From contig DATLBD010000141.1 of NCBI GenBank assembly GCA_035527135.1, positions 1 through 61,803 of the forward strand: a stretch of DNA of 61,803 bases. Direction: 5' to 3'. The stretch is from Methanothrix sp. GTDB lineage: Archaea; Halobacteriota; Methanosarcinia; Methanotrichales; Methanotrichaceae. Position numbers and translations under genes: made by a program. The notes below the pieces were generated by a model. It did not search any database. It had not been told where the DNA came from and saw only the letters and a list, made by a program, of their open reading frames with translations. Positions 11,394 through 41,669 of this stretch are shown here, one piece after another (position 1 is the stretch's first letter; the number at the start of each line of letters is the position of its first letter).

Positions 11394-11642
11394 CCATATC
11401 TCCTTTAATAACTATAGCCTCTGTATATATACATCTTTCTGCCTGGAAAATGAGAGAAAGCTTTGGATCAATGAAGCTACTGCAATTTGTAAGTCGCGAT
11501 TTTGAATCGTGAGAGTAGGACAATGGGAAACAGCCAAGAGCCTAAAAAAAGGCCAGCTCCCACAAAAGAAACAAAGACGCACCAAAATTAAAAAGAAAAA
11601 TATCCTGCAAGTCCGCTCGACCTGCAGGCTCTCTCATCTCTT

Positions 11643-14209: not shown

Positions 14210-14454
14210 GTTATTCTCCTCGAACTTCCTCTATGATTAAACCCACCACATTAATATTACTTTGCGAATATGCTACTATAGCGAATGTACTGCTATTGCG
14301 ATAGCCTTTCATTGCGCTTTCATTGCGAATGTATTGCTTGATGTTTATGCGCCTTCATAAGAATATTTCAATCTATTTACGGCTTATCGTCAATGCTCAT
14401 CCTATAGGCCGATCTTCAAAGCATGTTATCAACGCATGTTATCAAAGCCTGTCG

Positions 14455-15735
14455 TCAAACCTTCTCCCACTTCTTAAGGTTTGCCACCTGCGAGAGAGTC
14501 TTTCCGCGCCTGATCTCCTCATAGAGCCTGCTTTCCATCTTCTCCACCTCTTTGGCTCTCCTGGCAATCTCATAAGCCCTCTCTTTGGGTATGACTACAA
14601 CTCCGCTATCGTCTCCCACAATGTAGTCACCGGGTCGCACCGTCTGGCCGCCACAGGTGATCTCGGAGTTGATCTCGCCCATGCCCTTGGGGTCGCCTGC
14701 ATTTAGTGTGATCCCTGAGGAGAATATGGGATAGTTCAAGGCTCTGATCTCATCGACATCCCGTACGGCTCCATCCATAACTACGCCCTCAATTCCCTTA
14801 ACCTTGCAGCTCAATGTGGCCAGACCACCCCAGGGTGCGATGTAATTGCTGCCATTGTAGATAACCAGCACATCCCCTGGCCCTGCCAGGTCAATGGCCT
14901 CCACCGGCTTGGCCCAGTCTCCTGCAAAGGTTTGCACGGTTATAGCCCTGCCTACGATCTTGCTGCCCAGATTTATGGGAAGGATGCCGCGCATGGCTCC
15001 CTTGCGGTGCATGGCATCGGAGATGTTGGGTGCTGATACCTCCCGCAGAATGGATACCATCTCCTCCTCTAGACTCATTTTCGGTGCCCTGCTTACCTGG
15101 GCATGGTCTATTGCTTCGCGAATTTTTCGGGCCGAAGCCGTTACATTGGCGCTTCTCACAATGCTTCCGCCCACGATGACAACAGCAGCACCGCTGGCGA
15201 TAGCCTCGGCACCGGAGAGGGCATCTATGCCACCTGCCGCCGCCACCGGAGTTTTGACCTCTTTTACGATCTCTTTCAGGAAATCGACGGTGTCGCGACC
15301 GGTCATCTGCTGGTCGATCCCTACGTGAACGCAGATGTAGTCTACACCAAGAACGTCTAGCTCACGGGAGCGCTTTACGGGATCTGGGACGGTCAGAAGA
15401 TCCATCATGATCTGCACGCCGTATTTTCGCGCCGCCCTCAGGGCATCCTCGATGGTAGAGTTGTCGGAGGCGGCAAGCAAAGCCACGATATCTGCTCCGG
15501 CTTTGGCTGCCATCTCTACCTCCATGGCGCCGGTATCCACGGTCTTCATATCGGCTACGATTTTGGTACCAGGAAGGGCCTTCTTCATCTCGCGCACAGC
15601 GTTCATACCTTCGCTCTTGATGAGAGGTGTTCCTGCCTCAATCCAGTCTGCTCCACCCGAGACTGCCTCTTTGGCTATCTGGATTGATCTGTCTAGCTCC
15701 AGAAGATCCAGTGCCACCTGTAGAATGGGTTTAAT
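14455..15735 (-). CDS. hxlA: 3-hexulose-6-phosphate synthase fused to RraA/MenG-like domain
   Basis: [34 protein letters not shown]; C-terminal [25 protein letters not shown]; N-terminus extends in frame to ATT 15735. Confidence 0.88.
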
Positions 15736-15778
15736 ATCATATCACCACACAACAGCACAAGCCTAAGTAAATTGATAC

Positions 15779-16690
15779 ATGGTATATAAAATGAAGCTGG
15801 CAGAGATTTCTGAGATAGAGCTTGATGACGGTCCCTTTCGGTCTCACAGCCTGACCTTCACCAAGCTGCATGGAAACGGCAACGACTTCATCTTGGTAGA
15901 TGAAATAGGGCAAGAGCAGGTAGTTGAGAGCGAGAAGAGAAGATTTGCTATTGCCTGCTGCCATCGCAACTTCGGCATCGGTGCAGATGGAGTTTTATTC
16001 CTGACAAGCAGCCCGCGAGCGGACCTGGGCATGAGGCTCATTCAGCCGGACGGCTCGGAGGCGGAGATGTGCGGCAACGGCATACGCTGCCTGGCCAAAT
16101 ATGCATGGGATACGGGATATGTGGGTGAGTTCTTTGATGTTGAGACCTTAGCAGGCATAATTTCCGTGCAGGTTCGAGAAATGGATGGCTGTTTTTGGGC
16201 CAAGGTAGATATGGGAGTGCCCAAGTTCGACCGGCCCACTATCCCCGCCTGCGGCTTTGGCGAAATGCTCTCAGAAGAGATAGAGGGCCTCCGGGTTTCG
16301 GCAGTCAATACCGGCGTTCCTCATGCGGTTGTTTTCGTCGAGGATATGGATTTTGACATCCGGGAGACGGCCCCGCTTATAAGACACCATAGCCTCTTTC
16401 CGGAAGGTGCCAATGTCAATTTTGTCAAGCCCGGCCAGCCTTTTCAGATCAGGACCTTCGAGAGGGGTGTAGAAGGGGAGACTTTCTCCTGCGGCACGGG
16501 TGCCGTGGCCAGTGCCAGTGTGGCACGCCGCCTGGGAGTGGTAGACAATGAGGTCTTGGTGCAGACCAAAGGCGGACCTTTGATCATAACCTTCGAAGAG
16601 GGCAAGGCCTTTATGGAGGGGCCGGCGGTAACAGTTTGCTCCGGCGAGCTTTCCGAAGAATACCTGTGGAACCTTTATCAGGAGCCGTGA
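15779..16690 (+). CDS. dapF: diaminopimelate epimerase
   Basis: KLHGNGNDF, EMCGNGIRC, GVPH, RTFERGVEGETFSCGTG. Confidence 0.95.
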   Translation: MVYKMKLAEISEIELDDGPFRSHSLTFTKLHGNGNDFILVDEIGQEQVVESEKRRFAIACCHRNFGIGADGVLFLTSSPRADLGMRLIQPDGSEAEMCGNGIRCLAKYAWDTGYVGEFFDVETLAGIISVQVREMDGCFWAKVDMGVPKFDRPTIPACGFGEMLSEEIEGLRVSAVNTGVPHAVVFVEDMDFDIRETAPLIRHHSLFPEGANVNFVKPGQPFQIRTFERGVEGETFSCGTGAVASASVARRLGVVDNEVLVQTKGGPLIITFEEGKAFMEGPAVTVCSGELSEEYLWNLYQEP

Positions 16691-16713
16691 GAAAAATTAT
16701 TGAGGCAAAAAAG

Positions 16714-17190
16714 ATGGGAAAGGCGGCATTCTCGGGGCGGATGGTTCTTTTCATTATCTTCACTTTCTTAACGCTCTTCACGCTCTTCACTCTCGCAAGT
16801 CCGGCTTATGCGGAGCATTATGTGATGGAGATCGGCAGCAAGAGCAATCCCAATGCCCATCTTTTCGCCTACGACCAGAAGTTCCGGGAGAGCACCAATC
16901 TGCATAACTATCCTATGAAAATGAGCGCATCCAAGGAGTTCACCGATGCCACCCGTCTCTCCACCAGGATGGAATTAAAGGCGCTTCCCAATCTCACGGA
17001 GATAAGCATAGACGCGGACTTCATCGGCATTGGACGCATCGGCTATCTGGTACTGGACCCGGAAACCGGGAACATAAAGGACGAGATGTCGCGCATCAAT
17101 CATATGTTTGTGGGCAACTTCAGCATTGAAGAGCAGATCCTGGTGGCCAAGGATCACATGTGCGAGAACGGATATCTGCCATGTGCGTGA
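16714..17190 (+). CDS. secreted hypothetical protein with Cys-containing C-terminus
   Basis: Signal peptide (..LFTLASPAYA), ends CENGYLPCA. Confidence 0.7.
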   Translation: MGKAAFSGRMVLFIIFTFLTLFTLFTLASPAYAEHYVMEIGSKSNPNAHLFAYDQKFRESTNLHNYPMKMSASKEFTDATRLSTRMELKALPNLTEISIDADFIGIGRIGYLVLDPETGNIKDEMSRINHMFVGNFSIEEQILVAKDHMCENGYLPCA

Positions 17191-17821
17191 CCTCCAATCG
17201 TTTTGTGTCTTTATGTAAGGGTTGAGGGGCTCAGATCACGATTTGCAGCAAACGCGATAGAGAAATCCGCATGAGTATTGGCACTCCATAGAGCCTGAAA
17301 ATGAAATCCTTCTGCCAAGGTTGCAATTGGCTGGGCTAAATGGGATGACTTTGTGTTTTATTCGTGAGCTGCGTTGTTGATAAGTTTGTATAAAATAATA
17401 AATAGTTGATCGGCGGATTAAGTATAAATGATATAAAATAAAAACCTAGTCAGGATCATTTAATCCTTCTCGGTCCGCTTCATATTAAAATGAAATAACT
17501 ATGAGTATTCATAATAATCCCCAATTTCTGGTTTTCCTATATTAGAAGAAACAATATATTTTTAAAATTGTTTTGATAATAACTACAATAGCAAGTATTT
17601 TATACCATACTTTTGCCAGAACATACTGATCATAGATTCGGATCAATGATCCTAACATCTTCAGGGGATTGGCGGCCGTTCCAAACTCCTGGGTTTTTTG
17701 TGGAGGGAAAGGGAGCATGGCAAAGGAATCGGGCCGCTCGGGAGGGCGCGCGCAGTCGGTGGAGAGCCGCGAGCATTGGCAGTATGATCTCATCTGCAAT
17801 AAGCCCAAGAGAGGTGGCAGC

Positions 17822-20800
17822 ATGAGACGGTTGCTGCTCTTGGCTCTGTTGGCCATGCTTTTGCTGGCCTCTGCCCAGGCGAAAGAAGTAGCTTTAGCAG
17901 CTTTGCAGGGCAATGCCTGGCATGACCTGGACTGCGACGGTCTCCAGGATCCGGGCGAGCCCGGTCTCGCAAATGTCCAGGTAGTTCTCTTGGACGGCAG
18001 CGGCAATCCTCTGACTCCTGTACAGATTGGCGGACTGCCTGTAGCAACCCAGACTGATGCAGACGGAGCGTACCAATTCACGGTTCCATCTGGAAGGCAG
18101 TATCGGGTCAAGTTCAGCCCGTCTTCGGGTCTGTTCTTCAGCCCCAAGGATCAAGGAAGCGACGATTCAAAGGACAGCGATGCCGATCCGGCCACCGGCC
18201 AGACTGATGCCATTGCCACGATACCCGGCCAGAGCTATCCTGGCTGGGATGCGGGCATATACGAGAACGAGATAATAATTAATGAGATTTACCCAAATCC
18301 AACTGGAAGCGACAACCGGGATGGTGTGGTCTCCTGGGAACGGGTGGAGCTGAAGAATGTAGGATCCTCAGACTGCAATATCGGTCAGTGGTCCATCGAA
18401 GATGACGAAGGCACCCTTTATACCATTCCCGCAGGCACTACTCTACCAGCAGGCGAATATCTGGTAGTTCACATCGGTGGCTATTCCGTGGGCATAAGCA
18501 ATTCCGATGGCGATCCGGTGATCCTCTACAATTTTGCCAGACAGGAAATGGAGCGGGTCGTCTGCCCAGTCTGCAGCAAAAAAGAAGGGCTGAGCTACTC
18601 CTGCCTTCCCGATGCATCCGAGAACTGGGACTTTCGGGGCGAGCCCACCTTTGGTGGCGATCTCTCTGAGACGAGCCTGCCCGGCGCTGTCAATGCCGTC
18701 CAGGACTATGGCGATGCTCCTGCATCCACTGGCACCACGCGCGCCCAGAATGGCCCGCGCCATTTTATCCTCGGACCGCACCTGGGCTCTCTGGTCGACA
18801 ATGAGCCGGACGGCCAGCCGGGACCCAATGCAAACGGAGACGACACCACCGGCCAGGATGATGAAGACGGTGTGACCTTCTCCAACCTCATCGTAGGCCA
18901 GAACTCGACGTTCGATGTGACCGCTTCGGCCTCGGGCATTCTGCAGGCCTGGATGGATTTCAATGGCGACGGAGCTTTCGACAATTCTGTAGAGCGGATA
19001 GCCATCGATCAATCGCTCACTGCGGGCGAGCATTCCTTGAGCTTCAGTGTGCCTTCCGGAGCCGAAGTCGGATTCACTTACGCTCGCTTCAGGCTGAGCA
19101 GCTCATCTGGCCTTTCGCCCTTAGGCCCTGCTGCGGACGGAGAAGTGGAGGACTACCAGGTGGAGATAAAGCAGAAATACATCCTGGGAGACCGCGTCTG
19201 GGAAGATCTCAATGGAGACGGCTTGCAGGACGCAGCTGAGCCTGGTGTGGATAGTGCCGTGGTCAATCTGAGAGATGAGCAGAACAATCTCGTAGCCAGT
19301 CAGACCACATCCGGCGGAGGATACTATGAGTTCATAAATCCTCTGCCAGGGACTTATACTCTGGAGTTTTTGCCGCCCCAAGGGTACCTTTTTGCCCAGA
19401 AGGATGTAGGGCCAGATGATGAAAAGGACAGCGATGCCGATCCGGCCACGCATCTGGCCGGGCCGGTCACAGTTGTTTTAGACCAGTCCAAATCCACCTG
19501 GGATGCGGGACTCTGCCATTTCGCCTCCATCTCGGGCTGCAAGTTCGAGGACAAAGATGGCGACGGCCAGAGGGACAGTGATGAGCCCGGCCTGAAGGAC
19601 TGGACCATAACGCTTTGCAAACCAGACGAATCAGAGATCACTGCTACCACCGATGAGAACGGTTTCTACTCCTTCACAAACCTGCCTCCGGGCAGCTACA
19701 ATGTCAACGAAGTTCAGCAGTACGGTTGGGTCCAGACTGCTCCGGCTCTCGAGTCTGAAGGAGATACTCACTACAATGTGACCCTCAGTGGCACCAACGT
19801 CACAAACAAGAACTTCGGAAACCGCGGCGCTCTTAGCGTCTACGGGACCAAGATCTACGATCTGAATGGTAACGGGCTCTGGGATGAGGGCGAGCCGGGT
19901 CTGCAAGGCTGGGAGATCCAGCTCAAGGACGGCAACGGAGCCATCATTCAAACCATCACCGAGGCCGATGGCGCTTACGGTTTCACCAACCTTGAGCCGA
20001 CAACTTACATAGTCAGCGAGGTGCAAAAAAACTTCTGGGTGCAGACTGCTCCCCTGGAGAGCAGCTACACCCTCAATCTGGCGAACGGCGATTTTCATGA
20101 CAAGAACTTCACAAACCGTGGCACCCTGAGCATCTCTGGCATCAAGTTCAGTGATATTAACGGCAATGGCGTTAGAGACCAGAACGAGCCTCTTCTACCT
20201 GATTGGCAGATCCAGCTCCGGGACAATCAGGATCTGCTCTTGAAGACCGTTTCCACCAGCAACGATACCGCAACCTTGGGCGCATACACCTTCACCAACC
20301 TGGGACCCGGAGTCTATAAGCTGACCGAGATTTCCCAGAACGGCTGGGTGCAGACAGCACCACCCGGTGGCCAGCATACCGTAGAGCTAGTTAACGCGAA
20401 TGTTGAGGGCAAGGACTTCGGAAACAACAGGCTTGCCATCTACGGTTACAAGTTCCAGGACATCAATGGCAACGGCCAAAAAGAGGAAAACGAGCCCTAT
20501 CTGCTAGGCTGGGAAATCAAGCTCAAGGACGGCAACGGGAACGAGCAAACGGTCACAACCAGCTCCGAGCCCGGCCAGGAGGGCAGATATTCTTTCTCGG
20601 GTCTGCAGCCCGGAGCCTACAAGGTGAGTGAGGTCCAGAAGCCCGGCTGGGTCCGGACCACTCCCTCGGAAGAAAGCTACGACGTGCAACTGTCGACTCA
20701 GGCGGTTGGGCCGGTTATCTTCGGTAACCGCGGCACTCTCTCCATCTCCGGCATGAGGTTCGAGGATCTGAACGGCAACGGCCAGAAGGATGCAGACGAG

Positions 20801-23800
20801 ACCGGACTTAAGGACTGGACCATCAGGCTGCAAAGCCCGCAGATCATCGAGACCACTACGACCACCGGCCAGGACGGTTCATACCAGTTCCAAGACTTGC
20901 CACCCGGGGACTACACCATCAGTGAGTTACTGCAGAGCGGCTGGGTGCAGACTGCACCGCCCGGTGGCCAGCATACCGTAGAGCTAGTTAACGCGAATGT
21001 TGAGGGCAAAGACTTCGGAAACACCAGGCTTGCCATCTACGGTTACAAGTTCCAGGACATCAACGGCAACGGCCAAAAAGAGGAAAACGAGCCCTATCTG
21101 CTAGGCTGGGAAATCAAGCTCAAGGACGGCAACGGGAACGAGCAGACGGTTACAACCAGCTCCGAGCCCGGCCAGGAGGGCAGATACTCTTTCTCGGGTC
21201 TGCAGCCCGGAGCCTATAAGGTGAGTGAGGTCCAGAAGCCCGGCTGGGTCCGGACCACTCCCTCGGAAGAAAGCTACGACGTGCAACTGTCGACTCAGGC
21301 GGTTGGGCCGGTTATCTTCGGTAATCGCGGCACTCTCTCCATCTCCGGCATGAAGTTCCACGACAGGAACGCCAATGGCCAAAAGGATGAGGATGAACTG
21401 CCTCTGTCCGATTGGGAGATTCAGCTCAGGGATGGTAACGGAGTAGTGCAGACCGTCAAGACCAGTGCCAAACCAGGCGAAGAGGGCAGATACGAGTTCG
21501 TGAACCTTCAGCCCGGCACCTATACTGTTACCGAAGAGCAAAGAACGGGCTGGGTGCAGACAGTTCCCACGGAGGATGGCTACACCATAACCCTGACCAA
21601 CCAACCTGTCAGGGGCAAGATTTTCGGCAACAACATGCTTGCTATCTCCGGAATCTGTTTCCTGGATTCAAACGGAAACAGCCAGCGAGACCAGGACGAG
21701 TCACCCTTCTCAGGCTGGGAGATTCAGCTCAAGGACGGTAGCGGAAACGTGCTGCAGACAGCCACCACCAGCTTCGAGCCAGGCAGCGAGGGTCGGTACG
21801 AATTCATGAACCTGGCACCCGGGACCTACAAGGTTGGCGAGGCTCCCAGAGCAGGCTGGATTCGCACCTTCCCACAGGATGAAGACCATGTGGTCACCCT
21901 AACCAACAAGCGCGCGGACGGCATCGACTTCGGCAATCGCGGCACTCTCTCCATCTCTGGCATGAAGTTCGAGGATCTGAACGGCAACGGCCAGAAGGAT
22001 GCAGACGAAACGGGACTTAAGGACTGGACCATCAGGCTGCAAAGCCCGCAGATTATCGAGACTACTACGACCACCGGCCAGGACGGTTCATACCAGTTTC
22101 AAAACCTTCCACCCGAAGACTACACCATCAGCGAGTTACTGCAGAGCGGCTGGGTGCAGACATCTCCTGCCGACGGCTCCTATTTGGTTAATCTCAAGGA
22201 TGCCGATGTCTTCGAGAGGGACTTCGGAAACCGCAAGCTTATAGAAGCCTTCCAGGTCCTGGTGACTGCCAATCCCCAGATGATCCTGCCCGGCCAGGAG
22301 ATCACCTTTACCATCACAATCAACAGCCAAGGCGAGATCCTGCCCGAGAGTCTGGGCGCAGAGAATACGCTGCCCGAGGGCCTGAAATTCGTCTCTTCGA
22401 ATCCCAGCCCTCTGAGCGTAACCGAGAACCCCGATGGCACCACAACACTGACATGGACGGGCCTCGCCTTCGGCTCACTCACCGCGGCCCAGGCAGCTCA
22501 GACGGCTGAATCTCAGGCCACATCCTTGAACTCTGCCCCGGCCCCATCGCCTTCGACATCCATAACCATCACCGCCCAGGCACATTCAGGAGCACCGGAG
22601 AGCCTCACCAGCACTGTTGTGGTCACAGGCAGTTCCAGCCAGGCAGCAGTGGCCTCGGCCACTTCCCAGGCATGCGTGAAATGCCTGAAGCTGCAGAGCG
22701 TCCCGGTGAAGCTGAACAAGACCTCCGACTTGAAAGAGGTCTGGCCTGGAGCGACGATTGGCTACAATATTACCTACACCAGCATGGTGAACATTGCGCT
22801 GACCGACGTGGTAATCGTCGAGCAGTCCTCGCCGGACCTGATTTTCATATCTGCTACGCCCGCACCGGACACGGAAACGAGCACCGTTTGGACGATTGGT
22901 GAACTGCAACCGCATGCTTCGGGCACCATAAGCGTTCTCTTCCTGGTCAAGGATGCTGAGAACCTGAGCTTTGGCAGCCAGTCCCATGTTCAGGGCAATG
23001 GCTTCATGAACCGCTACCGCAGGCTCTCCACGGACACAATTCCATCGAGCATCCAGAACAGCGTTTCTTTAAGCAGCAAAGAGTTCGGCTCGGTCACAGC
23101 CTCCAACTCTGTCCGGCTGCGGGACGCAAAGGGCACGAGCATCCTCAAGAAGGAGCACGGCAGCGGCAATCTCCAAAGCGAGGAACTCTCAGCTCTGGCC
23201 ATGAAGAACAAGACCGTGGAGGTGAACAGCTCCCTTGAGGCCGTCTACCTGCCTACAGCCTTCGATCTGCCCAGGAGGTCGCTGGACTACAACTCCCGAT
23301 TATCCTCGTTGACATGGACCAAGAACCGCGCCACGGACGCCTCGACCAGCCAGGAGTACAGGTATGCAGACAGCCTGGCGCTGGTGCAGCAGATAAGGCT
23401 CGACAAGAACGGCACGGACATGGCCACGGAGGGCTCTGTGCTGGGGCAGACTCACCTGAGCATCCGAAAGAAGGAGCCGACCGAGCTGAAACATCCCTCT
23501 CCAATCTTCGAGTCCACGGAGGACTATTCCGGAGCCTTCCAGTTCAATCAGAGACTGGAAGACTTTGGCTTGAATGTCAAGATGATCAGGAACGTCACCT
23601 GCCTCGGCTGGGCCTCGAGCGACCAGCGCCTCAAGAAGAGCCAGCGAAGCTATGAGCACGGCGCAGGCTCCTACCAGAGCAAGGAGCTGGCAAGCACTGC
23701 AGAAAGCTACATCGCCAAAGACCTAAACGTCATTTACGATCCTCAGTACGGCTACGGCAAATGGAAAGCGGGCATTTGGTCAAAGAGCCCCGGCCAGAGC

Positions 23801-24868
23801 TATCTGGGCCAGGAGATCACCGGTGCGGACTTTATCCATGAGGAGACGGAGGCGGAGGGCTTGAGTGATATGTCCACTAACCTCAGTTTCCTGGGAAAGG
23901 CCATGCTGCGGGCTGTCTCCAAGAGTGCCAACAGTGAGCTGGATTTGGATGAGGAGTACATGGGCCAGTATTCCTTGCAACGCAAGGTCCACCTGGGCGG
24001 CGTCTCCCACTTCGACAGGCCTCATCTCACACTGAACAAGACCGGGCGACTGGTGCCCGGCACTACTGCAGCCGATTACACCATCACAGTTCTTAACGAC
24101 GGTAACGCGGCCTTAGGCCCGGTCTACGTCTGGGACATATTTCCGGCTGGAACCGATTTCCTGAGTTCCTCGCTCAAGCCCGACAGGCTGCAGAAGAGCT
24201 ATGCCAACTGGTCACTGCTGTACCTGGGCATAGGCCAGTCCGTGAACATCAACCTGCGGCTGAATGTGACTGACCAGAGGGACGAACTGGTCAACTTGGT
24301 CTATGCCTCAGGAGGACATAACCGCGAGTGGGTCACGGCAGGCAACATGAGCACTATTCAATTTGGATGGCTGGAATGCTGCTCGCCGCAGATGCTCGTG
24401 GAAAAGCAGGCCAGAATCGATGCGGCGGACAGCCGGCTCATCTGGTACCGCATCCTTCTCAAAAACCAGGCCAATGTGAGCCTGGTGGCACATATCACGG
24501 ACCGCCTGCCGACGGGTTTACAGATCTTGAATGCCTCGGCACAGCCACAGGTGGAGGGACTGGATCTTGCCTGGGTAACGACGGCTATCCCTGCCGGTGA
24601 AACCAGGTTCATCGAATATCGGGCACAGGCCACGAAGAACGGCAAGTTCGTGAACACGGCCAGAGTGGAGGCCCATGCCCTGGATGGCTCGGGTGGATCC
24701 TCGACAGAGGCCAGCGCCAGCGTGCAGGTGGGCGAGGCGACATCCTACACTGAGGACGGATGGCGGCCACCTGAGTGGGGGCTGGACAGGTCGGAGATGA
24801 TATGCGACAATGAGATCGCAGGGGCATGCAGCTCCTGCCCAAGCTGTAGCTGTTCTGCTGGAGAATAA
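17822..24868 (+). CDS. giant cell-surface protein: SdrD-B-like repeats (11), lamin-tail-like domain, GEVED domain, DUF11-like domains, Cys-rich tail
   Basis: Signal peptide after GAGGTG; repeated (I/L)xGxx(F/W)xDxNGNG..E.GL..W.I.L; INEIYPNP; DYGDAP..GEVEDY; DUF11-like segments. Confidence 0.92.
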   Translation: MRRLLLLALLAMLLLASAQAKEVALAALQGNAWHDLDCDGLQDPGEPGLANVQVVLLDGSGNPLTPVQIGGLPVATQTDADGAYQFTVPSGRQYRVKFSPSSGLFFSPKDQGSDDSKDSDADPATGQTDAIATIPGQSYPGWDAGIYENEIIINEIYPNPTGSDNRDGVVSWERVELKNVGSSDCNIGQWSIEDDEGTLYTIPAGTTLPAGEYLVVHIGGYSVGISNSDGDPVILYNFARQEMERVVCPVCSKKEGLSYSCLPDASENWDFRGEPTFGGDLSETSLPGAVNAVQDYGDAPASTGTTRAQNGPRHFILGPHLGSLVDNEPDGQPGPNANGDDTTGQDDEDGVTFSNLIVGQNSTFDVTASASGILQAWMDFNGDGAFDNSVERIAIDQSLTAGEHSLSFSVPSGAEVGFTYARFRLSSSSGLSPLGPAADGEVEDYQVEIKQKYILGDRVWEDLNGDGLQDAAEPGVDSAVVNLRDEQNNLVASQTTSGGGYYEFINPLPGTYTLEFLPPQGYLFAQKDVGPDDEKDSDADPATHLAGPVTVVLDQSKSTWDAGLCHFASISGCKFEDKDGDGQRDSDEPGLKDWTITLCKPDESEITATTDENGFYSFTNLPPGSYNVNEVQQYGWVQTAPALESEGDTHYNVTLSGTNVTNKNFGNRGALSVYGTKIYDLNGNGLWDEGEPGLQGWEIQLKDGNGAIIQTITEADGAYGFTNLEPTTYIVSEVQKNFWVQTAPLESSYTLNLANGDFHDKNFTNRGTLSISGIKFSDINGNGVRDQNEPLLPDWQIQLRDNQDLLLKTVSTSNDTATLGAYTFTNLGPGVYKLTEISQNGWVQTAPPGGQHTVELVNANVEGKDFGNNRLAIYGYKFQDINGNGQKEENEPYLLGWEIKLKDGNGNEQTVTTSSEPGQEGRYSFSGLQPGAYKVSEVQKPGWVRTTPSEESYDVQLSTQAVGPVIFGNRGTLSISGMRFEDLNGNGQKDADETGLKDWTIRLQSPQIIETTTTTGQDGSYQFQDLPPGDYTISELLQSGWVQTAPPGGQHTVELVNANVEGKDFGNTRLAIYGYKFQDINGNGQKEENEPYLLGWEIKLKDGNGNEQTVTTSSEPGQEGRYSFSGLQPGAYKVSEVQKPGWVRTTPSEESYDVQLSTQAVGPVIFGNRGTLSISGMKFHDRNANGQKDEDELPLSDWEIQLRDGNGVVQTVKTSAKPGEEGRYEFVNLQPGTYTVTEEQRTGWVQTVPTEDGYTITLTNQPVRGKIFGNNMLAISGICFLDSNGNSQRDQDESPFSGWEIQLKDGSGNVLQTATTSFEPGSEGRYEFMNLAPGTYKVGEAPRAGWIRTFPQDEDHVVTLTNKRADGIDFGNRGTLSISGMKFEDLNGNGQKDADETGLKDWTIRLQSPQIIETTTTTGQDGSYQFQNLPPEDYTISELLQSGWVQTSPADGSYLVNLKDADVFERDFGNRKLIEAFQVLVTANPQMILPGQEITFTITINSQGEILPESLGAENTLPEGLKFVSSNPSPLSVTENPDGTTTLTWTGLAFGSLTAAQAAQTAESQATSLNSAPAPSPSTSITITAQAHSGAPESLTSTVVVTGSSSQAAVASATSQACVKCLKLQSVPVKLNKTSDLKEVWPGATIGYNITYTSMVNIALTDVVIVEQSSPDLIFISATPAPDTETSTVWTIGELQPHASGTISVLFLVKDAENLSFGSQSHVQGNGFMNRYRRLSTDTIPSSIQNSVSLSSKEFGSVTASNSVRLRDAKGTSILKKEHGSGNLQSEELSALAMKNKTVEVNSSLEAVYLPTAFDLPRRSLDYNSRLSSLTWTKNRATDASTSQEYRYADSLALVQQIRLDKNGTDMATEGSVLGQTHLSIRKKEPTELKHPSPIFESTEDYSGAFQFNQRLEDFGLNVKMIRNVTCLGWASSDQRLKKSQRSYEHGAGSYQSKELASTAESYIAKDLNVIYDPQYGYGKWKAGIWSKSPGQSYLGQEITGADFIHEETEAEGLSDMSTNLSFLGKAMLRAVSKSANSELDLDEEYMGQYSLQRKVHLGGVSHFDRPHLTLNKTGRLVPGTTAADYTITVLNDGNAALGPVYVWDIFPAGTDFLSSSLKPDRLQKSYANWSLLYLGIGQSVNINLRLNVTDQRDELVNLVYASGGHNREWVTAGNMSTIQFGWLECCSPQMLVEKQARIDAADSRLIWYRILLKNQANVSLVAHITDRLPTGLQILNASAQPQVEGLDLAWVTTAIPAGETRFIEYRAQATKNGKFVNTARVEAHALDGSGGSSTEASASVQVGEATSYTEDGWRPPEWGLDRSEMICDNEIAGACSSCPSCSCSAGE
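20341..21353 (+). repeat. near-identical intragenic direct repeat, ~415 bp (20341-20756 vs 20938-21353, offset 597)
   Basis: Direct comparison shows long identical runs with scattered substitutions; the protein repeats GWVQTAPPGG...GNRGTLSISGM. Confidence 0.9.
20719..22161 (+). repeat. second intragenic direct repeat, ~230 bp (20719-20952 vs 21928-22161, offset 1209)
   Basis: Both copies encode FGNRGTLSISGM.FEDLNGNGQKDADETGLKDWTIRLQSPQ...SGWVQT. Confidence 0.85.
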
Positions 24869-26965: not shown

Positions 26966-27152
26966 GTTCTATCCAGACATAGACATGTTTCAAGCTTGAC
27001 ATGTTTCATGCCTGCCCTATCTCTATCCTTATTTAAATCTGCGGAGTATTAAGGCCCGCCCTCGAGCGGCCTTGGGATTTCAGTTTTATGTCTGATACGA
27101 CAGCCAATCAAAGGGCATTATTATATGGCCGCGAAATAAAGCAAAGATTGCG

Positions 27153-27932
27153 ATGACAGCTCAAAAGACCATGCGGACATTCAGCCAACTTGACATAGCA
27201 CCCACGGCAGCCTATATTCTGGGCTTACAGCTTCCCAGCTCAGACGGCCAGCCAATTGGTTCGGCAGTCGCCTGGGGCTGCAAAAACGTAGCGCTCATCA
27301 TTATCGACAGCCTTGGTTATGATTTATTGATGTGGCTTTTGCCCACGCTGGAGAACATGAGAACTCTCTGTAATGAAGGGCAGCTCTTCCGGGCAAAAGC
27401 CGTCTCCAATCACACCACTCCGGCAATCGCCAGCATCTTGAGCGGACTGTTGCCGGAGCACCACGGAATTTTCGATAAGGCTGGCGCTAAAGAGTCACGT
27501 ATCCTCAGCCTGCCGGAGATAGCAGCAGCGTCAGGCCAAAGGTGCGCAGTGATAATGGAGCAAAATGGAGCCGATGTTTACCAGGGTTTGATTGAGATCG
27601 TGAGCGGCATACCGGATAGCATCCCTCCCCAGGACTTTGATCGAGAGGCTTGTCGCATGACCTGTCTGGCCCTTTCAAAGCGGCCCAGACTTCTCGTCTC
27701 CTACTTCATAGGAATTGATAAGAGCGTTCACCTGGGCCAGGGCCAAGAAGGCATAAGAGAGGCAGCTTTGCTTATTGATCGCTGCATAGGTGAGATCGTA
27801 AGCATGGCAGACGATGAGACCATGTTCATCATCTGCGGAGACCATCCTATACACGCCGGGCCGCTCAAAAGAATTAGAGAGCCTTATTGCGTGGCCATGA
27901 TCATAGCAAAAGGAAGAGCACAAAAAATCTAA
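27153..27932 (+). CDS. alkaline phosphatase superfamily (phosphodiesterase/sulfatase-like) protein
   Basis: IIIDSLG, HTTPAIASILSG..PEHHG, ID..VH, GDH metal motifs. Confidence 0.8.
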   Translation: MTAQKTMRTFSQLDIAPTAAYILGLQLPSSDGQPIGSAVAWGCKNVALIIIDSLGYDLLMWLLPTLENMRTLCNEGQLFRAKAVSNHTTPAIASILSGLLPEHHGIFDKAGAKESRILSLPEIAAASGQRCAVIMEQNGADVYQGLIEIVSGIPDSIPPQDFDREACRMTCLALSKRPRLLVSYFIGIDKSVHLGQGQEGIREAALLIDRCIGEIVSMADDETMFIICGDHPIHAGPLKRIREPYCVAMIIAKGRAQKI

Positions 27933-27979
27933 CGGAGTTTCGATAAGTTTAAATGCAGCAAGCGAAATGTAGCTGTTTA

Positions 27980-28102
27980 ATGGATGAAGATCTCTCCGAG
28001 GTTTTTCAATTAATTGCCGAAGATGAACGCAAGCGCAGGTATCTTAAGGAGGTCGGCGACTGGCTTGTAGAAGAATACTTCGAACTCCGCCAAGCATCTT
28101 GA
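27980..28102 (+). CDS. unannotated 40-aa small protein (MDEDLSEVFQLIAEDERKRRYLKEVGDWLVEEYFELRQAS)
   Basis: ATG..TGA open frame; TTTAAAT box ~26 nt upstream (leaderless geometry); T-tract right after the stop; amphipathic helical sequence. Confidence 0.6.
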   Translation: MDEDLSEVFQLIAEDERKRRYLKEVGDWLVEEYFELRQAS

Positions 28103-28679
28103 ACCTTTTTTTCAATTCTTTGGTTTTGCGTTTAACGAGACTTCTTGATAGGAACTTTATGGTCAAGATTTTTTAATTAATTGTTTATTAAGTTTTTTTG
28201 ATTAATACGTTTTAATCTATTTATTATCGAATTTTATTACATCTTTATTAATTCTTAACACTTCACATTCCTGAATCGCTATCGTAACTATAATACTTAA
28301 AAATAATTCTGATGCGGCTGCACAATGGATTTTCGCCTTTCCGAGCATTTTGTGCGGCAACTTCGCGCGCATTAGTTCACAAAGTTTTTTGATATAAGGC
28401 ATATTTAGGATTAAATTTTCCAGCAATTTCCGCATCAGTAGGACATTGTGAAATGGTTTCACAAAGGCAAAAACTCCTCCGCGCATAGATACAAGATCCA
28501 CCGATAGCTATTATCATGATAGTATTCGCCCGAAATTTCTTTTCACAACAAATTATATTGCGTTTTTCCGGTCTTAAAGAAACCTTGTGAAATGCTATTC
28601 TGGATACTATTAGATCTTTATTTCGAAAAATAACTACAAATATGAGTTTTAAGCCATTAACCACAACTACCAACTATTA

Positions 28680-28693
28680 GAAAGGTTTATATA
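28680..28693 (+). promoter_or_regulatory. archaeal BRE-TATA promoter
   Basis: GAAAGG + TTTATATA (28686-28693); predicted start near 28716. Confidence 0.7.
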
Positions 28694-28715
28694 TCACAAA
28701 AACTAGGTTAATATT

Positions 28716-29678
28716 GTGCCAGAATGGCCAGACAACCTGTCTGATTACATCGAGATGGGATAAACAAAGAGGGCTTATTCGTCTGAGGGGATGGATGGAC
28801 CTTCGCAATATCTCAGCACAGTAAGGGAAGTGTATAGGGTGAATAGATCCGGAGTATCGGCACCATTCATTCCACACAAATTTGTGGAAGAGCCGCGTCG
28901 TCTGGAAGTTCACCATTGTGCAAGCATAACGTCACCGTAAGGGATGGCACGAGGAGTAGCAATGAAGGGGGAAATCGAAGGCGTTAAAGGCCTTTTCGGT
29001 ATCCAGCAAAATGCTTCACAACGATACTCTTCTCGCAGGGATGGCACAAGGGGTAGCGAAAGGGAGTTCGTATAAGATCTGGGTATTAAAGGCATCTGTC
29101 TACAGACTGTTCACTGTCGGAAAGGGACGACAAAATGGCTCTGTCTGATGCAGGCGAAAAATCCCGTGGCTTTGGCCGGTTAAATTCTCGTTGTCGGAAA
29201 GGGACGACAATGAGGATCGAAAGGGGACGGCCAAGACAAGATCGAATATGAATTGTTGGAGACAGGCTGTGAAAGCAAGGACAAAAGGACTGGACCATCA
29301 TTGAAGGGGATGGTAAGGTGTCAGCTCTCCAATGTTTAATTACAGCCTGTCTGGAAAAAGGGATGGCACGAGAATGACATTAGGTCGGATCGACCGGAAG
29401 GGAATTCATGCATAAGCTGATCCGATCCGTAGAAAACGTAGAAAAGAAAGAGTAGTTGCTAAGAGCGAGCATTTGGCTATGAGGAGGGGAAATTTGTGAG
29501 AGGGCACATTAAATTGTTTATGCTGCAGATGAACCTGGAGAAATCCAAGCAGCCAAAAAATGCTGCGATGACAGAAAACGTCTGCTTTGGAACCTGCCGG
29601 AATGCAGCTTCCTCTATCCAGCGCATATTCCTTCCTTCCTTGGAGATAATATCCGGAAGATGATCGGAGGGGGATTAA
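28716..29678 (+). ncRNA. candidate large structured non-coding RNA or ~960-nt 5' leader with repeated AAGGGA motifs
   Basis: No convincing ORF; many stems; three GAAAGGGA octamers, three GGGATGGCAC decamers; strong GGG over CCC strand asymmetry. Confidence 0.6.
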
Positions 29679-30146
29679 ATGAGAATCCGGATAGAGATAG
29701 AAGACAAGGGCCTTAAGTCCTCCCATGAGTTTGAGTCGCAAAACATGGATGGAGAGGCTTTAAGAGACAGGATTATTGGCTTTCTGTCAGCTTCCGGTGT
29801 CTTTGAGAGCAGAGGAGAGAGCATTGCCTCAGCCGCATCTGCTCGTAATTACAGTAGCGGAACGCTCATGGACCGGCTGGAAAGCTTCATTCGCTATGAG
29901 TTTTCCAATACCTGGTTTACAACCCAGGAATTAAGAGTGAAATATGAGACCGTAGCCGATGATATCAAGCTCTCCACAGTCTCTACCTATCTATCCCGCA
30001 TGAATCGCGACGGTCTGCTGGATAAGAGGGGGAACAGGAACAACCGGCAATACAGATTGATTGAGAGCATCGAGCCAGAGATGGTATCACAACATAATTA
30101 TCAGCGCCAGAATAGCTATGAGAAGAGAAGAGCAGAAAGCAGATAA
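29679..30146 (+). CDS. small winged-helix nucleic-acid-binding protein with N-terminal beta-rich domain
   Basis: GGAGGGGG SD; WFTTQEL..IKLSTVSTYLSRM..DGLLDKRG..RQYRL fits a wHTH recognition helix and wing. Confidence 0.8.
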   Translation: MRIRIEIEDKGLKSSHEFESQNMDGEALRDRIIGFLSASGVFESRGESIASAASARNYSSGTLMDRLESFIRYEFSNTWFTTQELRVKYETVADDIKLSTVSTYLSRMNRDGLLDKRGNRNNRQYRLIESIEPEMVSQHNYQRQNSYEKRRAESR

Positions 30147-30225
30147 AAAATAGCCCGACCGGAAAATATCTTATGGATCTTTCCCACCATCAAGACATCC
30201 TTTGCCATAGACATCCGGTCAGGCT
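30145..30225 (-). other. structured element with 12-bp closing stem followed by U-tract (small RNA or terminator)
   Basis: Minus strand AGCCUGACCGGA...UCCGGUCGGGCU then AUUUUUU, with internal stems. Confidence 0.45.
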
Positions 30226-30383
30226 CCTCTGCTCTAAATTAGCAATATTTTGCCGCCTTCCTAAAGCGATTTTGTGCTTGCTATTTCATACTTTATATTT
30301 TATTTTTTAAACATAATACCCTGTAGCTTGCTGTGGTTGAAAAGAAGGCATTTGGGTCAACTTAACCAGGGTTCCACTTTCAT

Positions 30384-30447
30384 GCGGCGGCGCCTTGGAT
30401 GCTCCGTCTGCTTGCAACGGGTGCGTCGCCACCGTTTCTACTCCGAC
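30384..30447. repeat. GC-rich palindromic dispersed repeat, copy 1
   Basis: GCGGCGGCGCCTTGGATGC matches 35271 at 18/19; forms a hairpin with GCGTCGCC. Confidence 0.55.
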
Positions 30448-30464
30448 TTATTATGCAGCACCGG

Positions 30465-33400
30465 CTAGGCTATATCGCTGAGGCGAGCCTGAGTTAGATT
30501 GATGGCATACCTGGCGAATGAATTCTCTGGGTCCATTTCCAAAACCCCTTCAAAGGCGAGAAGAGCTTCTTGGGAGCGGTTTTGGGCCGCCAGGGCCAAG
30601 CCCTTGTAGTATTTGGCATCAATGTTTTGCGGCTGCAGCAAGACGGCTTTCTCAAAGCTCTGCAAAGCCTCATCAAGTCGGCCGATCTGGCTATGCGCCA
30701 GTCCCAGTCCCAGCCAGGCGGCAGCATCCTCCGGATTTTGCCTGGTCGCATTCTGAAAAGCTTCTGCCGATTGGCTGAAGCGGCCCAGAGAGTAGTACAC
30801 CTGACCCAGATTATACCATACCTCTCCATGAGAGGGATCGATCCGGCATGCCTCTTCCAGGCTGCGGGCAGCCTCATCGTACCGGCCAACAGCTGCCTGC
30901 AAGCTTCCCAAATTGGACCAGGCAGCATAGTTTCCTGGCTGTATGGATACCATCTCTTGGAAGCATTTTAAGGCAGAAGAGCTGTTGCCGAGAGCCGCTA
31001 GCGCCAGGCCCTTGCCAAGCAATGCATCGACATCAGATGAGTTCAGGCTCAGTGTTTTGTCAAAGAGCGGCAGAGATTTGTTGTACTCTCCCAGGGCGCA
31101 GAGTACATTGCCTTGCCCCCTGTAGCCGTGGCCGCTACTGGGATCAAATGCTGTAGCCAGCTCGTAATAGTAAAGAGCATCACTGTAGTTGCCCTTTTCG
31201 TAAAGAGCATCGCCCATGCCCAGGAGTGCAGCCGCATTTTGCGGCTCGATGGCAAGAGCCCGCTCGTAGCTTTGCAGGGCTAGATCTGCATCTTTGTCGC
31301 ATAGGAGGGCATCGCCCCTGCCCGCCCAGGCAGCAGTGTTATTTTCATCCAGTGCCAGGACCCTATCATAAGACTGCAGAGCTGATTTGCAGTCAGCCAC
31401 TACATAGTGAATCCTTGCCTCACCCAATAATGCTCGAATGTTTTCCCTATCGATTTGCAGTGCTTTCTCATACATTGGTTTAGCCCGGTCAGAAAGGCCA
31501 TTATGCAGGAAGATATCTCCCCTGCCAAGCAATGCCTGCAAGTTGCCAGGCTCCTGATCCAGGACACGGCCATAGGCCAGCAAAGCTCCGGCCAGATCAT
31601 TTTGCTCCGAGAGCACATCTCCTTTGCCCAGCAGTGCTTCAGTATTTTCTGGCTCCAACAAAAGAGCCTGATCATAGCACTGCAGGGCCTGTTCTGTCTC
31701 TTTTTGCAGATAGAGCGCCTCTCCTTTTCCCACCAGGGCAAAGACGCTTTTCGAATCCTGGGCCAGAGCATTGGCAAAGCTGCTTTGAGCTGATGGATAA
31801 TCATGCAGCGCCAGGTGGCAGTATCCATTGCCAAGCAGTGCCCGAAGATCATCTGGCTTCATTTTCAGAGCCTGATTGTATGCCTGCAGGGAGGAGTTGT
31901 AGTCCTGCCGGGCATAAAGAGCCTCAGCTTTTCCCAGCATTGAATCAAAATCTGTGGCGTTATGCACAAGTGCTTCTTCGTAGTACTGCAAAGCCTGATC
32001 GTATTCCTGGAGAGCGAGGTTTGCATCGCCCATGCCCCGCAAGGCAGAACCATTTCCGCTTTCCTTCTCCAATACCCGGGAAAAGCATTGCACTGCCTCC
32101 TGGTACCTTGCCAATTCCAGCAATAGGCTGCCTTTGCCGAGCAGTGTTTGTGTGCTATTGTCATCCAGCTTTAGCGCCTTGTCGTAGCTTTGCAGAGCGC
32201 CTTTAGAGTTTTGCAGCTTCTCTTGCACCTGTGCCTTTTCATTCCACAAAGAGATATCCTCCGGGTCCAGACGCAAGGCGGAGTCGATGAATAGCCCGGC
32301 CATTCTATATTTCCCAGTCAGGGACAGGATGCGTCCTTTTAATGCCAGGGCAGGGAGATTGGATTGATTTATCCGCAAAGCCTGATCCAGTGAATCGAGG
32401 GCCTCGGATTGCCTACCCAGACTAAAGAGCATATGTCCTTTAAGCTGCCAGGCCTCTGCCTGATTGGCGTCAAGCTCAAGGGATTTGTTGAGTCTATCCA
32501 GAGCAAGAGAATACGAGCCGTTTTTGCTATAGTTATCAGCCTGCTCTAAATAGTAGGAGTAATCGGAGATCTCCGGCTCCTTTTGCTGGACAGCGTCCTT
32601 CGGTTCGGCATCCCCTGATTTTGCCTCCTCCTTATCCGCGGCAGATGCTGCCGATGCTGCAGATACCTTCTCTTTTCCGGCCAGTGCGCCGGGATCCTGA
32701 GGCGAGAGGACAAGGGCAGTCTCATAACTCTTCTGTGCCTCTGAGAAGTGGTTTTCGGCTAGGAGCCGGTCTCCCTGGGCCGTCAGAGCCCTGACCCAAC
32801 CGGATACTGCTCCTTCGCTTTGGGGTGCAAGCCGGGAAGCATCCTCAAAATTATCAAGGGCCACGGATACGTTTCCTGCTGCAAGCTCTATTTCGCCCAG
32901 GCCCACCAGAGCCCGCGACTTGCCCACTTTGCTTATCTCATCTGATGAATTGCCGGCCAGGATCTCGTCATAGCAGGCCAGGGCTTCCTCAAATCTGCCC
33001 AGGCTGATCGAAGCTTCTCCTTTAAGCTGCAGAGCCTGGATATTTTGCGGATCCAGGGCAAGAGCATCATTGCTGCCAACATAAGCCGTCTCGAATTTTC
33101 CTTCCTGCAAAAAGGCCGAACTGCGGGCCAGTAGCACTTCAACCTGACCCGCTTCTCCGGCTGTGCTCCGGCCATAAAGGGAGGCGTTCTTGAAGCTTTG
33201 CAAAGCCTCGTCGTAGCTTTCCAGGGCAAGAGATGCGTTGGCCTTGCCCAGCCACGCCTCGGCAAGGCCTTCTTTCAGCGCCAGGGCCCGCTCGTAGCTG
33301 TCCCGAGCCTCGCCAAAATCCTCCGTCAGCTCTTTTACCCTGCCGTCCTCCAGCCAGAGCTGAGCATTCTTGGCATCTTTTCTTAGGGCATAGCTAAAGC

Positions 33401-41036: not shown

Positions 41037-41669
41037 ATATGCTTGAAAGATGAGAATTTAAGTCAAACGCATCAAAAAGGGATTGCATGATTATATGTGA
41101 AATGAAGAATAGCATAATCATTCTTGAGGATTTAGAAGGGAGGATCCGGGTTAATTCATCTTGAGGGGATGGATGATTTAAAAATCGCTTAAGAAATCCC
41201 GGACCCAAATTGTACTTATTGCCAATCATATATAAATTTTGCTGTATAACTTTTTGAGAATTTCAAATAGGAGTAATTTATCTTTATGCTTTGCCAGCGG
41301 ATTGAAAAAGAAAAAAGATAAAACTATAGCATCGTATAAAAATATCAGCGCTTTTTTGGATGGATGTTTCCCCTTTCTCACGCTGTATTAGCTATCGAGG
41401 AGGAAATAGTTAATTGAATTTCTTCGTCATTCATCAGATAAGATGATGAGAACTTTTAAATGAAAATATTAATAGAAAAACAAAATGTAAAATTAACTTA
41501 TTAAATATAAATAATTGAATGCCACAGTTAAATGAGAAAATTAAATGTGAATAGTTAAAACTTTTGAGTGGAAAATGTTGAATTAAAATGATATATAAAA
41601 ATTTAAAACACAATAAAAACTATCCAAATTAAAATTATAGGTATTATGTAATTTGAATAATTTGCTTGG

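Follow-up and report, generated by a model that had tools for sequence, protein, structure and literature searches.

Sponges of bacterial small RNAs are Hfq-dependent and mostly single-site, and eukaryotic multi-site microRNA decoys such as CDR1as/ciRS-7 carry many seed-complementary sites for one small RNA. In the bacterial chbBC decoy of ChiX and in SroC, directed at GcvB, an mRNA-borne stretch pairs with the seed of a small regulatory RNA (sRNA) and can titrate it (PMC13501541). In archaea, sRNA162 of Methanosarcina mazei masks the ribosome-binding site (RBS) of the transcription-factor cistron in a bicistronic mRNA (PMC3510493; PMC5867862), and most archaeal sRNAs have been reported as poorly conserved (PMC4152357), even within a genus. 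The present study deals with a stretch of 61,803 nucleotides (nt) of Methanothrix sp. (assembly GCA_035527135.1, contig DATLBD010000141.1; the whole stretch is called the window) and, within it, with positions 28716-29678 of the forward strand, upstream of a winged helix-turn-helix (wHTH) gene, which a first-pass annotation had described as a structured non-coding RNA of ~960 nt, either a CsrB-like protein sponge or a multivalent regulatory leader. It is proposed here that two candidate sRNAs, sRNA-A and sRNA-B, pair with the leader of this gene and repress its operon, and that the many sites titrate them into a threshold switch, a reading to which we assign a probability of roughly 55%. That real RNA-RNA pairing underlies the locus, be it for repression and titration, for sponging in trans or for activation, is regarded as highly probable.

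Two candidate small RNAs and their predicted sites in one leader

The features of the locus are the following, with their basis in brackets; sRNA-A lies on another contig.

28660..28675, + strand: conserved box just 5' of the promoter, a possible regulator site (conserved in the 28 genus leaders aligned, visible in other genera)
28680..28693, + strand: promoter with B recognition element (BRE) and TATA box, putative start near 28716 (conserved columns in the genus alignment)
28716..29495, + strand: long non-coding 5' leader of ~780 nt in which several stretches are complementary to the small RNAs (no stop-to-stop frame on the + strand exceeds 60 codons)
28732..28749, + strand: conserved 5' element of the leader (kept in the genus alignment and other genera; two other genome matches, both with 3 mismatches)
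28775..28798, + strand: putative sRNA-B site, the ancestral, phylum-wide motif (-41.0 kcal/mol, ranking first in the genome among non-self duplexes with the sRNA-B loop; -17.1 net of the cost of opening)
28928..28971, + strand: main putative sRNA-A site, three perfect runs of 9, 15 and 19 nt (net -35.1 kcal/mol for 28939-28971)
29037..29067, + strand: second putative sRNA-A site, perfect runs of 11 and 12 nt (complementarity, duplex energy)
29115..29132, + strand: hairpin with an 8-nt sRNA-A seed in its loop (loop opening cost 0.0 kcal/mol)
29184..29225, + strand: covarying hairpin with the same 8-nt loop seed, then a further 8-nt seed at 29218-29225 (complementarity, covariation)
29294..29314, + strand: hairpin with an 8-nt sRNA-A seed at 29302-29309 (not kept in most relatives)
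29358..29373, + strand: unbroken complementarity over 16 nt to the tail and 3' stem strand of sRNA-A (net -12.6)
29478..29490, + strand: Shine-Dalgarno (SD) region of the small open reading frame (ORF), predicted to pair with the sRNA-A loop (net -9.5)
29496..29663, + strand: conserved small ORF of 55 codons, no Pfam match (conservation, codon pattern)
29679..30146, + strand: winged-helix gene, 155 amino acids, mostly single copy and widespread in the phylum (homologue searches)
41131..41206, - strand: sRNA-B candidate, closing stem around a C-rich loop complementary to 28775-28798 (Methanotrichaceae counterpart of the locus in family f3 described below)
41229..41240, - strand: BRE/TATA of sRNA-B (conserved in the 24 family copies printed)
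G000:C139:27251-27351, also L045:2752-2852, C-rich strand: sRNA-A candidate (conserved BRE/TATA)

The DNA upstream of the wHTH gene was matched in 34 of 36 genomes of the genus, a few of them through the sRNA-A locus only, and in none of 24 genomes of two other families. In many genomes the second, short match of this search was the sRNA-A locus, an intergenic element that hardly varies and follows trm1, a tRNA methyltransferase gene, on its downstream side. Its conserved BRE/TATA lies on the strand opposite the purine motifs and the predicted sRNA-A is therefore C-rich; it is laid out as a variable 5' hairpin, a second stem, an open loop of 30 nt and a short tail, and the frames that run over it are short and unconserved. 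The element was found in 101 of 104 family genomes at E <= 1.6e-10 (the 102nd match was the leader only), with three weak matches among 146 other genomes of the class, and in many family genomes the second match of the sRNA-A search was in turn the wHTH leader. Over 24 copies the loop is fixed and two-sided changes occur in 9 of the 20 consensus pairs.

Perfect complements of sRNA-A in the leader measure 19, 16, 15, 12, 11 and 9 nt, with four more of 8 nt, and include the hairpin loops singled out in the first-pass annotation. The best antisense match of sRNA-A in the genome by BLAST is 28953-28971 (19/19), and the match with the leader is long and non-palindromic, with a 9-nt offset. Ranked among 3132 intergenic strands, the leader comes first for sRNA-A with 104 letters in 9 sites (next non-self strand: 37 in 4); in a duplex scan of 237,968 windows, of which 11,506-21,730 passed the seed filter, it was the top non-self partner for the 3' domain of sRNA-A, for the sRNA-A loop and for the sRNA-B loop. 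After opening costs the main sites remain strong (A -35.1, B -17.1), the loop seeds are modest, at roughly -8 to -9, and a weak value (-3.3) was obtained for one tail site. Across 75 promoter-bearing leaders the mean number of sRNA-A sites of at least 8 nt is 6.7 against 0.9 after shuffling, a count that takes in the small-ORF region where the ORF pattern missed the ORF, and 72 of 74 leaders (one of the 75 had Ns; the genomes are related) exceed all of their 100 shuffles. Number and arrangement of the sites vary by genus, with tandem copies in some, so that the sites appear to turn over and yet persist. The leader of genus g16 (L090, L091) is built of tandem units of ~100 nt with one sRNA-A site each, and these sites follow the altered sRNA tail of that genus.

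The purine motifs that drew attention to the region were recounted. All 18 of the quoted coordinate ranges that were checked hold the sequence given for them, and in place of ~18 GGG runs, mostly AGGG, against a single CCC, the + strand of 28716-29678 holds 20 G-runs, 18 of them with A before, and one C-run. This number reflects composition only (20 observed, 20.4 in 2000 dinucleotide shuffles). The motif of a G-run between two As is enriched, with 14 copies against 4.1, as is the exact 8-mer with 3 copies against 0.11, values that none of the 2000 shuffles reached, and for the former motif the region ranks first among 48,646 genome windows of 963 nt. The repeats are pieces of ~45 different letters which match two separate candidate sRNAs in antisense, and not one short motif.

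The second candidate, sRNA-B, is traceable beyond the Methanotrichaceae. In family f3, which we take to be Methanosarcinaceae within a phylum taken to be Halobacteriota, the wHTH gene has a short 5' untranslated region (UTR) with two copies of the motif seen here at 28782-28798. Four of five f3 genomes searched hold the motif, each with a further near-copy at one syntenic locus, located between rtcB-like and PUA-like genes (names recognised by eye), where it is again antisense to the loop of a hairpin that follows a TATA box; the g6 genome searched had none. Strong sRNA-B matches were obtained in 69 genomes of f3, distributed over the genera just as the wHTH gene is (69 genomes each). In g6, which is probably Methanosarcina, and g25 (41 genomes) neither was found at comparable strength, the sRNA-B matches being weak with E of at least 0.0125, and the wHTH gene was missed in g6 by single query (0/35) and by profile (0/7) and likewise in g25. 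The f3 sRNA-B may be listed as an unnamed start site in the figures or the sRNA table of PMC5378194, a dRNA-seq study of Methanolobus psychrophilus.

Within the Methanotrichaceae, 60 of 104 genomes match sRNA-B, a few only weakly, and one of nine pairs shows a two-sided change. For the 30 sRNA-B candidates folded, the closing stem was predicted in every case, with boundaries chosen to favour it. The B site is present in 61 of 75 leaders and is missing in g12, g16, g20 and g23, where sRNA-B was not found either. A pattern for diverged sRNA-B in g10, g11, g12, g15 and g16 was given up as it returned too many matches (137), and a cross-family covariance model was dropped because the stems did not align. 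One genome of family f8 (G243) holds two sRNA-B candidates (L245, L263).

Across families, the sRNA-B candidates and the UTR of the wHTH gene change together. Read by eye, 18 of the 20 distant phylum loci displayed have the UTR motif, and the two f17 loci lack it. Searches by pattern turned up candidate hairpins preceded by AT-rich, promoter-like boxes in 5/5 genomes of f4, 5/5 of f2, f5 and f8 and 5/10 more distant genomes. When duplexes were computed all against all for 24 genomes of 11 families, pairs from the same family reached -39.0 kcal/mol against -28.9 between families (permutation p = 1e-5 with one genome per family), and for 17 of 24 leaders the best sRNA came from their own family. 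Part of this advantage is built in, because the search patterns were drawn from the leaders; a flank-only score outside the patterns, limited to the 8 families whose patterns held no flank letters, gave 9.4 against 6.6 (exact p = 2/40320). The position adjoining the core pairs as A-U, C-G or U-A depending on the family. The UTRs of f16, 200-300 nt long with 3-4 B-type motifs (L280, L283, L284), represent an independent multi-site expansion, for which patterns gave no convincing sRNA.

Leader, small reading frame and winged-helix gene

Positions 28716-29495 are likely the 5' leader of an operon of the Methanotrichaceae consisting of the small ORF and the wHTH gene. The promoter pattern is in range at 75 of 81 loci, and the alignment of 28 upstream regions (29 were located, one without promoter pattern being left out) displays frequent indels between relatives; on these and on the lack of a long + strand frame a coding leader was rejected. 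Folding z-scores, from 20 shuffles each only, were -3.8 for 28716-29678 and -4.6 for 28716-29495. The hairpin 29184-29217 covaries, with two-sided changes in 4 of 7 pairs and 95.7% of cells paired, a value reached by 0/500 shuffles and compared with 20-74% in slid controls; the sequences compared are relatives, selected because they have this hairpin. Two strict loop hairpins occur in the leader here, which bears out the earlier view that purine motifs are displayed in loops; genus relatives usually have one or two, and the most distant genera none. A bacterial-type scan found no terminator-like site on the + strand, and scans for sigma-70-type promoters and terminators are uninformative in an archaeon.

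The region as first described had been held to contain no credible ORF over ~960 nt. This must be corrected, since 29496-29663 is a conserved ORF, which reduces the non-coding part to ~780 nt and places the stems at 29549-29566 and 29652-29668, formerly counted as non-coding RNA, within or at the end of coding sequence. What stands of the multivalent regulatory leader is a conserved, structured, multivalent non-coding element with an archaeal promoter and loop motifs; its length and the CsrB-like sponge do not. A known Rfam family, which had been named as a finding that would speak against the proposal, was not encountered, the window being without a match at gathering score. At E <= 1, 27 related loci likewise gave no relevant Rfam match, only neighbouring tRNAs and three sub-threshold chance matches.

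A small ORF of 48-57 codons with its own SD was found at 59 of 81 loci, the 22 misses being 17 loci from distant genera and 5 closer ones. Single-letter codon differences, counted pairwise over codons 2-15 of related sequences, were 6462 synonymous and 3134 non-synonymous in frame, with the relation reversed in the other two frames, and codon-like conservation begins at 29496 in the 28-region alignment. The stop lies 15 nt before the wHTH start, a spacing that suggests coupled translation of the wHTH gene. As a partner of sRNA-A, the start region of the small ORF (-40..+15) falls within the best 1% of 2253 start regions, whose start codons were guessed mechanically. The conserved first residues of the small protein (29496-29520) recall the first beta-strand pattern of the wHTH protein (29679-29705), an impression only; the small protein might join or block the N-terminal domain of the latter.

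The labels on homologues of the wHTH protein read Methanothrix or Methanotrichaceae. Of 251 genomes of the class, 193 gave a match to the gene, almost without exception in one copy, and its profile matched 112 of 251 phylum genomes, a few by weak partial matches, as well as 360 clusters at 50% identity. AlphaFold predicts a short N-terminal domain made of a beta-hairpin and a helix and, with confidence, a winged helix over residues 61-130. No family name could be given, as Pfam matches stayed below cut-off and NCBIfam yielded 3 stray single-member matches among 32; no solved relative was found by sequence, Foldseek gave nothing at E <= 0.001, ESM Atlas only hypothetical clusters, and VIA-align generic winged-helix folds with Z up to 10.5 over residues 61-135 only. 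In f3 the proteins carry a Gln/Pro-rich linker of 100-300 residues between two domains (L100, L102, L106, L108-L112, L114, L117), whereas Methanotrichaceae lengthened the RNA leader instead. Some g12 genomes have two wHTH copies (L095 and L096 in G069; G067; L373 and L377), and in G069 one copy has a multi-site leader and the other does not.

Across the phylum, a short hexamer was seen by eye to recur in either orientation near the promoter and directly behind the start site (28260-28600; UTRs L268-L287); it is a candidate operator, perhaps for the wHTH protein itself. In many lineages other than Methanothrix a pyrimidine-rich conserved element, again seen by eye, lies 150-350 nt upstream of the wHTH promoter (L098-L117, L268-L276). 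It resembles the archaeal origin recognition box and may mean Orc1/Cdc6 control or a nearby origin.

Sixteen RNA runs were listed for the leader, all as assembled contigs that carry no strand, start or level and may derive from DNA. On 27100-31600, runs X1 and X2 of one study gave four contigs, 99% alike and all within 28766-29306, none on ORFs. In runs X5 and X8, contigs of relatives cover the leader and a stretch that begins at 29458, crosses the small ORF and enters the wHTH gene, with sparse cover of the flanks; those that reach the ORFs cannot show one transcript. At the sRNA-A locus one of four runs (X13) held a 98-nt contig on L045 2786-2851, which covers the 3' two-thirds of sRNA-A and stops at its predicted 3' end; its depth of 75 against 2-16 for the listed neighbours is not a level, as the invariance of the sRNA pools species. 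The contig data are consistent with transcription of leader and sRNA-A and are no demonstration of it.

Repression and titration weighed against other readings

Under repression and titration, sRNA-A and sRNA-B would be transcribed on the C-rich strand from their own TATA boxes, and loop-loop contact at the exposed seeds (kissing) would extend into longer duplexes, with the sRNA-A tail serving as the toehold from which the leader opens the stem of the sRNA. In the ancestral state sRNA-B alone would pair within a short UTR, at a site with an SD-like core 15-60 nt ahead of the wHTH start, and hinder ribosome loading; in the Methanotrichaceae the UTR would have grown to 400-1000 nt and gained 2-11 sites for the family-specific sRNA-A, which could cover the SD of the small ORF. 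Upstream sites would serve as decoys or recruiters, and output would depend on the ratio of leader to sRNA. The complementarity, its genome rank and conservation, the exposed 8-nt seeds, the small ORF and the lineage-matched change of sRNA-B and UTR are read directly from the sequences, and the direction, repression, leans on analogy with sRNA162 and sRNA41. It was preferred because the SD-like core of the B site lies near the start in short UTRs, because sRNA-A can cover the small-ORF SD and because of the 15-nt gap between stop and start. The wider picture of an ancient, phylum-wide sRNA circuit on a single-copy winged-helix regulator, its sRNA and target letters co-evolving in 11 families or more, and rebuilt in the Methanotrichaceae into a two-input RNA titration device with about ten seeds for the second sRNA, a leader of up to 1 kb and a sponge in cis and perhaps in trans, is offered tentatively, at somewhat less than even odds.

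Several observations weigh against repression and titration. The B site lies ~700 nt from the first start codon and cannot mask an SD directly, and the SD of the wHTH gene (29665-29681) is a weak to moderate partner of sRNA-A, its region ranking no higher than the best 12%. In genera g11 and g15 a B-like site is present and no sRNA-B was found, and in 5 of 10 distant genomes (f16 0/3, f36 0/1, one f18 genome) no convincing sRNA-B was obtained though the UTRs carry the motif. The sRNA-B candidates were picked by eye for stem and promoter with the flanks in view, so that the flank-only test was not blind, and a contig on sRNA-A was seen in one run only. A bias towards G-U-compatible substitutions is absent from the leader sites (20/266 vs 19/324, p = 0.5) and from the sRNA-B sites (1/35 vs 6/95).

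The same pairing would be expected if the leader were freed or stopped early and acted in trans, sparing other mRNAs from sRNA-A with its anti-SD-like loop. With this would agree that X1 and X2 cover only the leader part of 4.5 kb, that the leader is strongly folded with most sites far from any start codon, and that some genome start regions pair well with the sRNA-A loop. Relatives' contigs, however, run from the leader end through the small ORF into the wHTH gene, a conserved target in the PRC-barrel gene discussed below is not clearly seen and a gap in contig cover proves nothing; we consider this version unlikely. Pairing could also activate, by making the mRNA more stable, preventing early termination or refolding the transcript, in the manner described for M. 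mazei sRNA154, which stabilises some of its targets (PMC5867862). The position of the B site near the 5' end, far from start codons, and the remodelling of the leader that long duplexes would bring speak for such activation, but the SD-like core near the start in short-UTR lineages and the top-1% rank of the small-ORF SD region among sRNA-A partners do not, and it is judged rather more unlikely still.

Two further explanations dispense with antisense pairing. In the CsrB-like protein sponge of the first-pass annotation the purine loops would bind an RNA-binding protein, and the sRNA loci would match as purine-strand RNAs with the same motif; the loops do fit the CsrA-type consensus and sit fully exposed in covarying hairpins, and the null result on wobble bias is in keeping with it. 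CsrA (PF02599) was however found in 0/61 genomes, with the control positive in 3 of 14 known genomes; the conserved TATA at both small loci reads into the C-rich strand, which the G-U pairs of the stems fit as well; ~45 shared, different letters, matched by separately encoded sRNAs, are too long for one small protein motif; and plain GGA is only mildly enriched (38 vs 30.4). A protein sponge is regarded as very improbable. Were the shared letters instead DNA sites of a transcription factor, perhaps the wHTH protein itself, downstream of promoters at three loci, drifting factor specificity would also give lineage-matched change, no wobble bias would be expected and the winged-helix neighbour would make sense; against this, the 5-letter purine motif has all 8 of its copies on a single strand and none on the opposite one, and the matches are long, non-palindromic, offset by 9 nt and enclosed by stems with two-sided and G-U changes, which leaves this the least credible account. 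Repression with titration is retained as the working interpretation.

Further putative targets and comparison with known systems

Other partners of the two sRNAs were noted in the genome. At the PRC-barrel gene (G000:C90, L380:576-842, - strand) the start region pairs with the sRNA-A loop more strongly than any other start region in this genome (-33.0). That this gene is a conserved second target is not supported, with a mean of -22.5 in 30 loci and a place in the best 5% in 14 of 30, as a strong SD would give. Before a small membrane-protein gene (G000:C154:10070, - strand; L160, also L155), a short leader contains an almost perfect site for sRNA-B (-32.8), which one relative shares; in this genome it is accompanied by a seed of the sRNA-A type, and the gene is a likely second target. 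An 18-nt perfect sRNA-B complement (-38.1) is located at G000:C12:15951 (+ strand; L382), intergenic at a contig end with the downstream gene cut off. Among the 25 best sRNA-A start-region partners are similar-looking signal-peptide proteins (G000:C179:1195, C70:1379, C84:9529, C22:42979), a possible sRNA-A regulon. Elsewhere in the window, 17669-24868 (+ strand) encodes a repeat-rich protein of 2399 amino acids, probably a secreted surface protein.

If the proposal holds, it would describe the first archaeal sRNA sponge in the searched literature and an unusually deep prokaryotic pair of sRNA and target; that literature, from which subscription papers and bioRxiv supplements were mostly absent, held no description of the leader, of these sRNAs or of an archaeal sRNA sponge. 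Few archaeal sRNA-target pairs are known, and two uncatalogued candidates for which a main target is predicted, and for which exact seeds and naturally occurring compensatory variants are at hand, would make RNA-RNA regulation in archaea directly testable, including in culturable short-UTR relatives. Methanothrix is a major acetate-using methanogen, and the wHTH gene encodes a conserved single-copy regulator seemingly absent from the model genus Methanosarcina, which would explain its having been missed. The many-site leader would, if true, be a natural threshold switch in a prokaryote with RNA as the titrated ligand.

Compared with known systems, sRNA-A and sRNA-B resemble the M. mazei sRNA162, sRNA41 and sRNA154 in being intergenic archaeal sRNAs with single-stranded anti-RBS regions (PMC3510493; PMC5867862); there, one or few sites are found per target, whereas here about ten sites for two sRNAs occur in one leader. 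Both candidates have their own promoter in an intergenic region and no ORF, a conserved structure that exposes the seed (two-sided changes in 9/20 pairs for sRNA-A, 1/9 for sRNA-B) and conserved complementarity to a distant mRNA 5' region. The families of sRNA41, sRNA154 and sRNA162 are represented in Rfam, and no homology of either candidate to them was found there by sequence or structure. In contrast to the poor conservation of most archaeal sRNAs, the pair of sRNA-B and UTR can be followed over 11 families, and the wHTH gene together with sRNA-B was not found in g6, probably Methanosarcina. The bacterial sRNA sponges share with the leader a pairing with the sRNA seed, here predicted only, and differ from it in that the leader displays many sites in hairpins, for two sRNAs, within the 5' leader of the likely main target. 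With CsrB, CsrC, RsmY and RsmZ it has in common that a long structured RNA shows multiple GGA-type purine motifs in its hairpin loops, and the proposed logic of titration, but it comes without CsrA and without an Rfam match, is probably not a stand-alone gene and has a ligand that is apparently RNA. Relative to CDR1as/ciRS-7, finally, the machinery is different, with no Argonaute implied, and the leader is linear and joined to coding genes.

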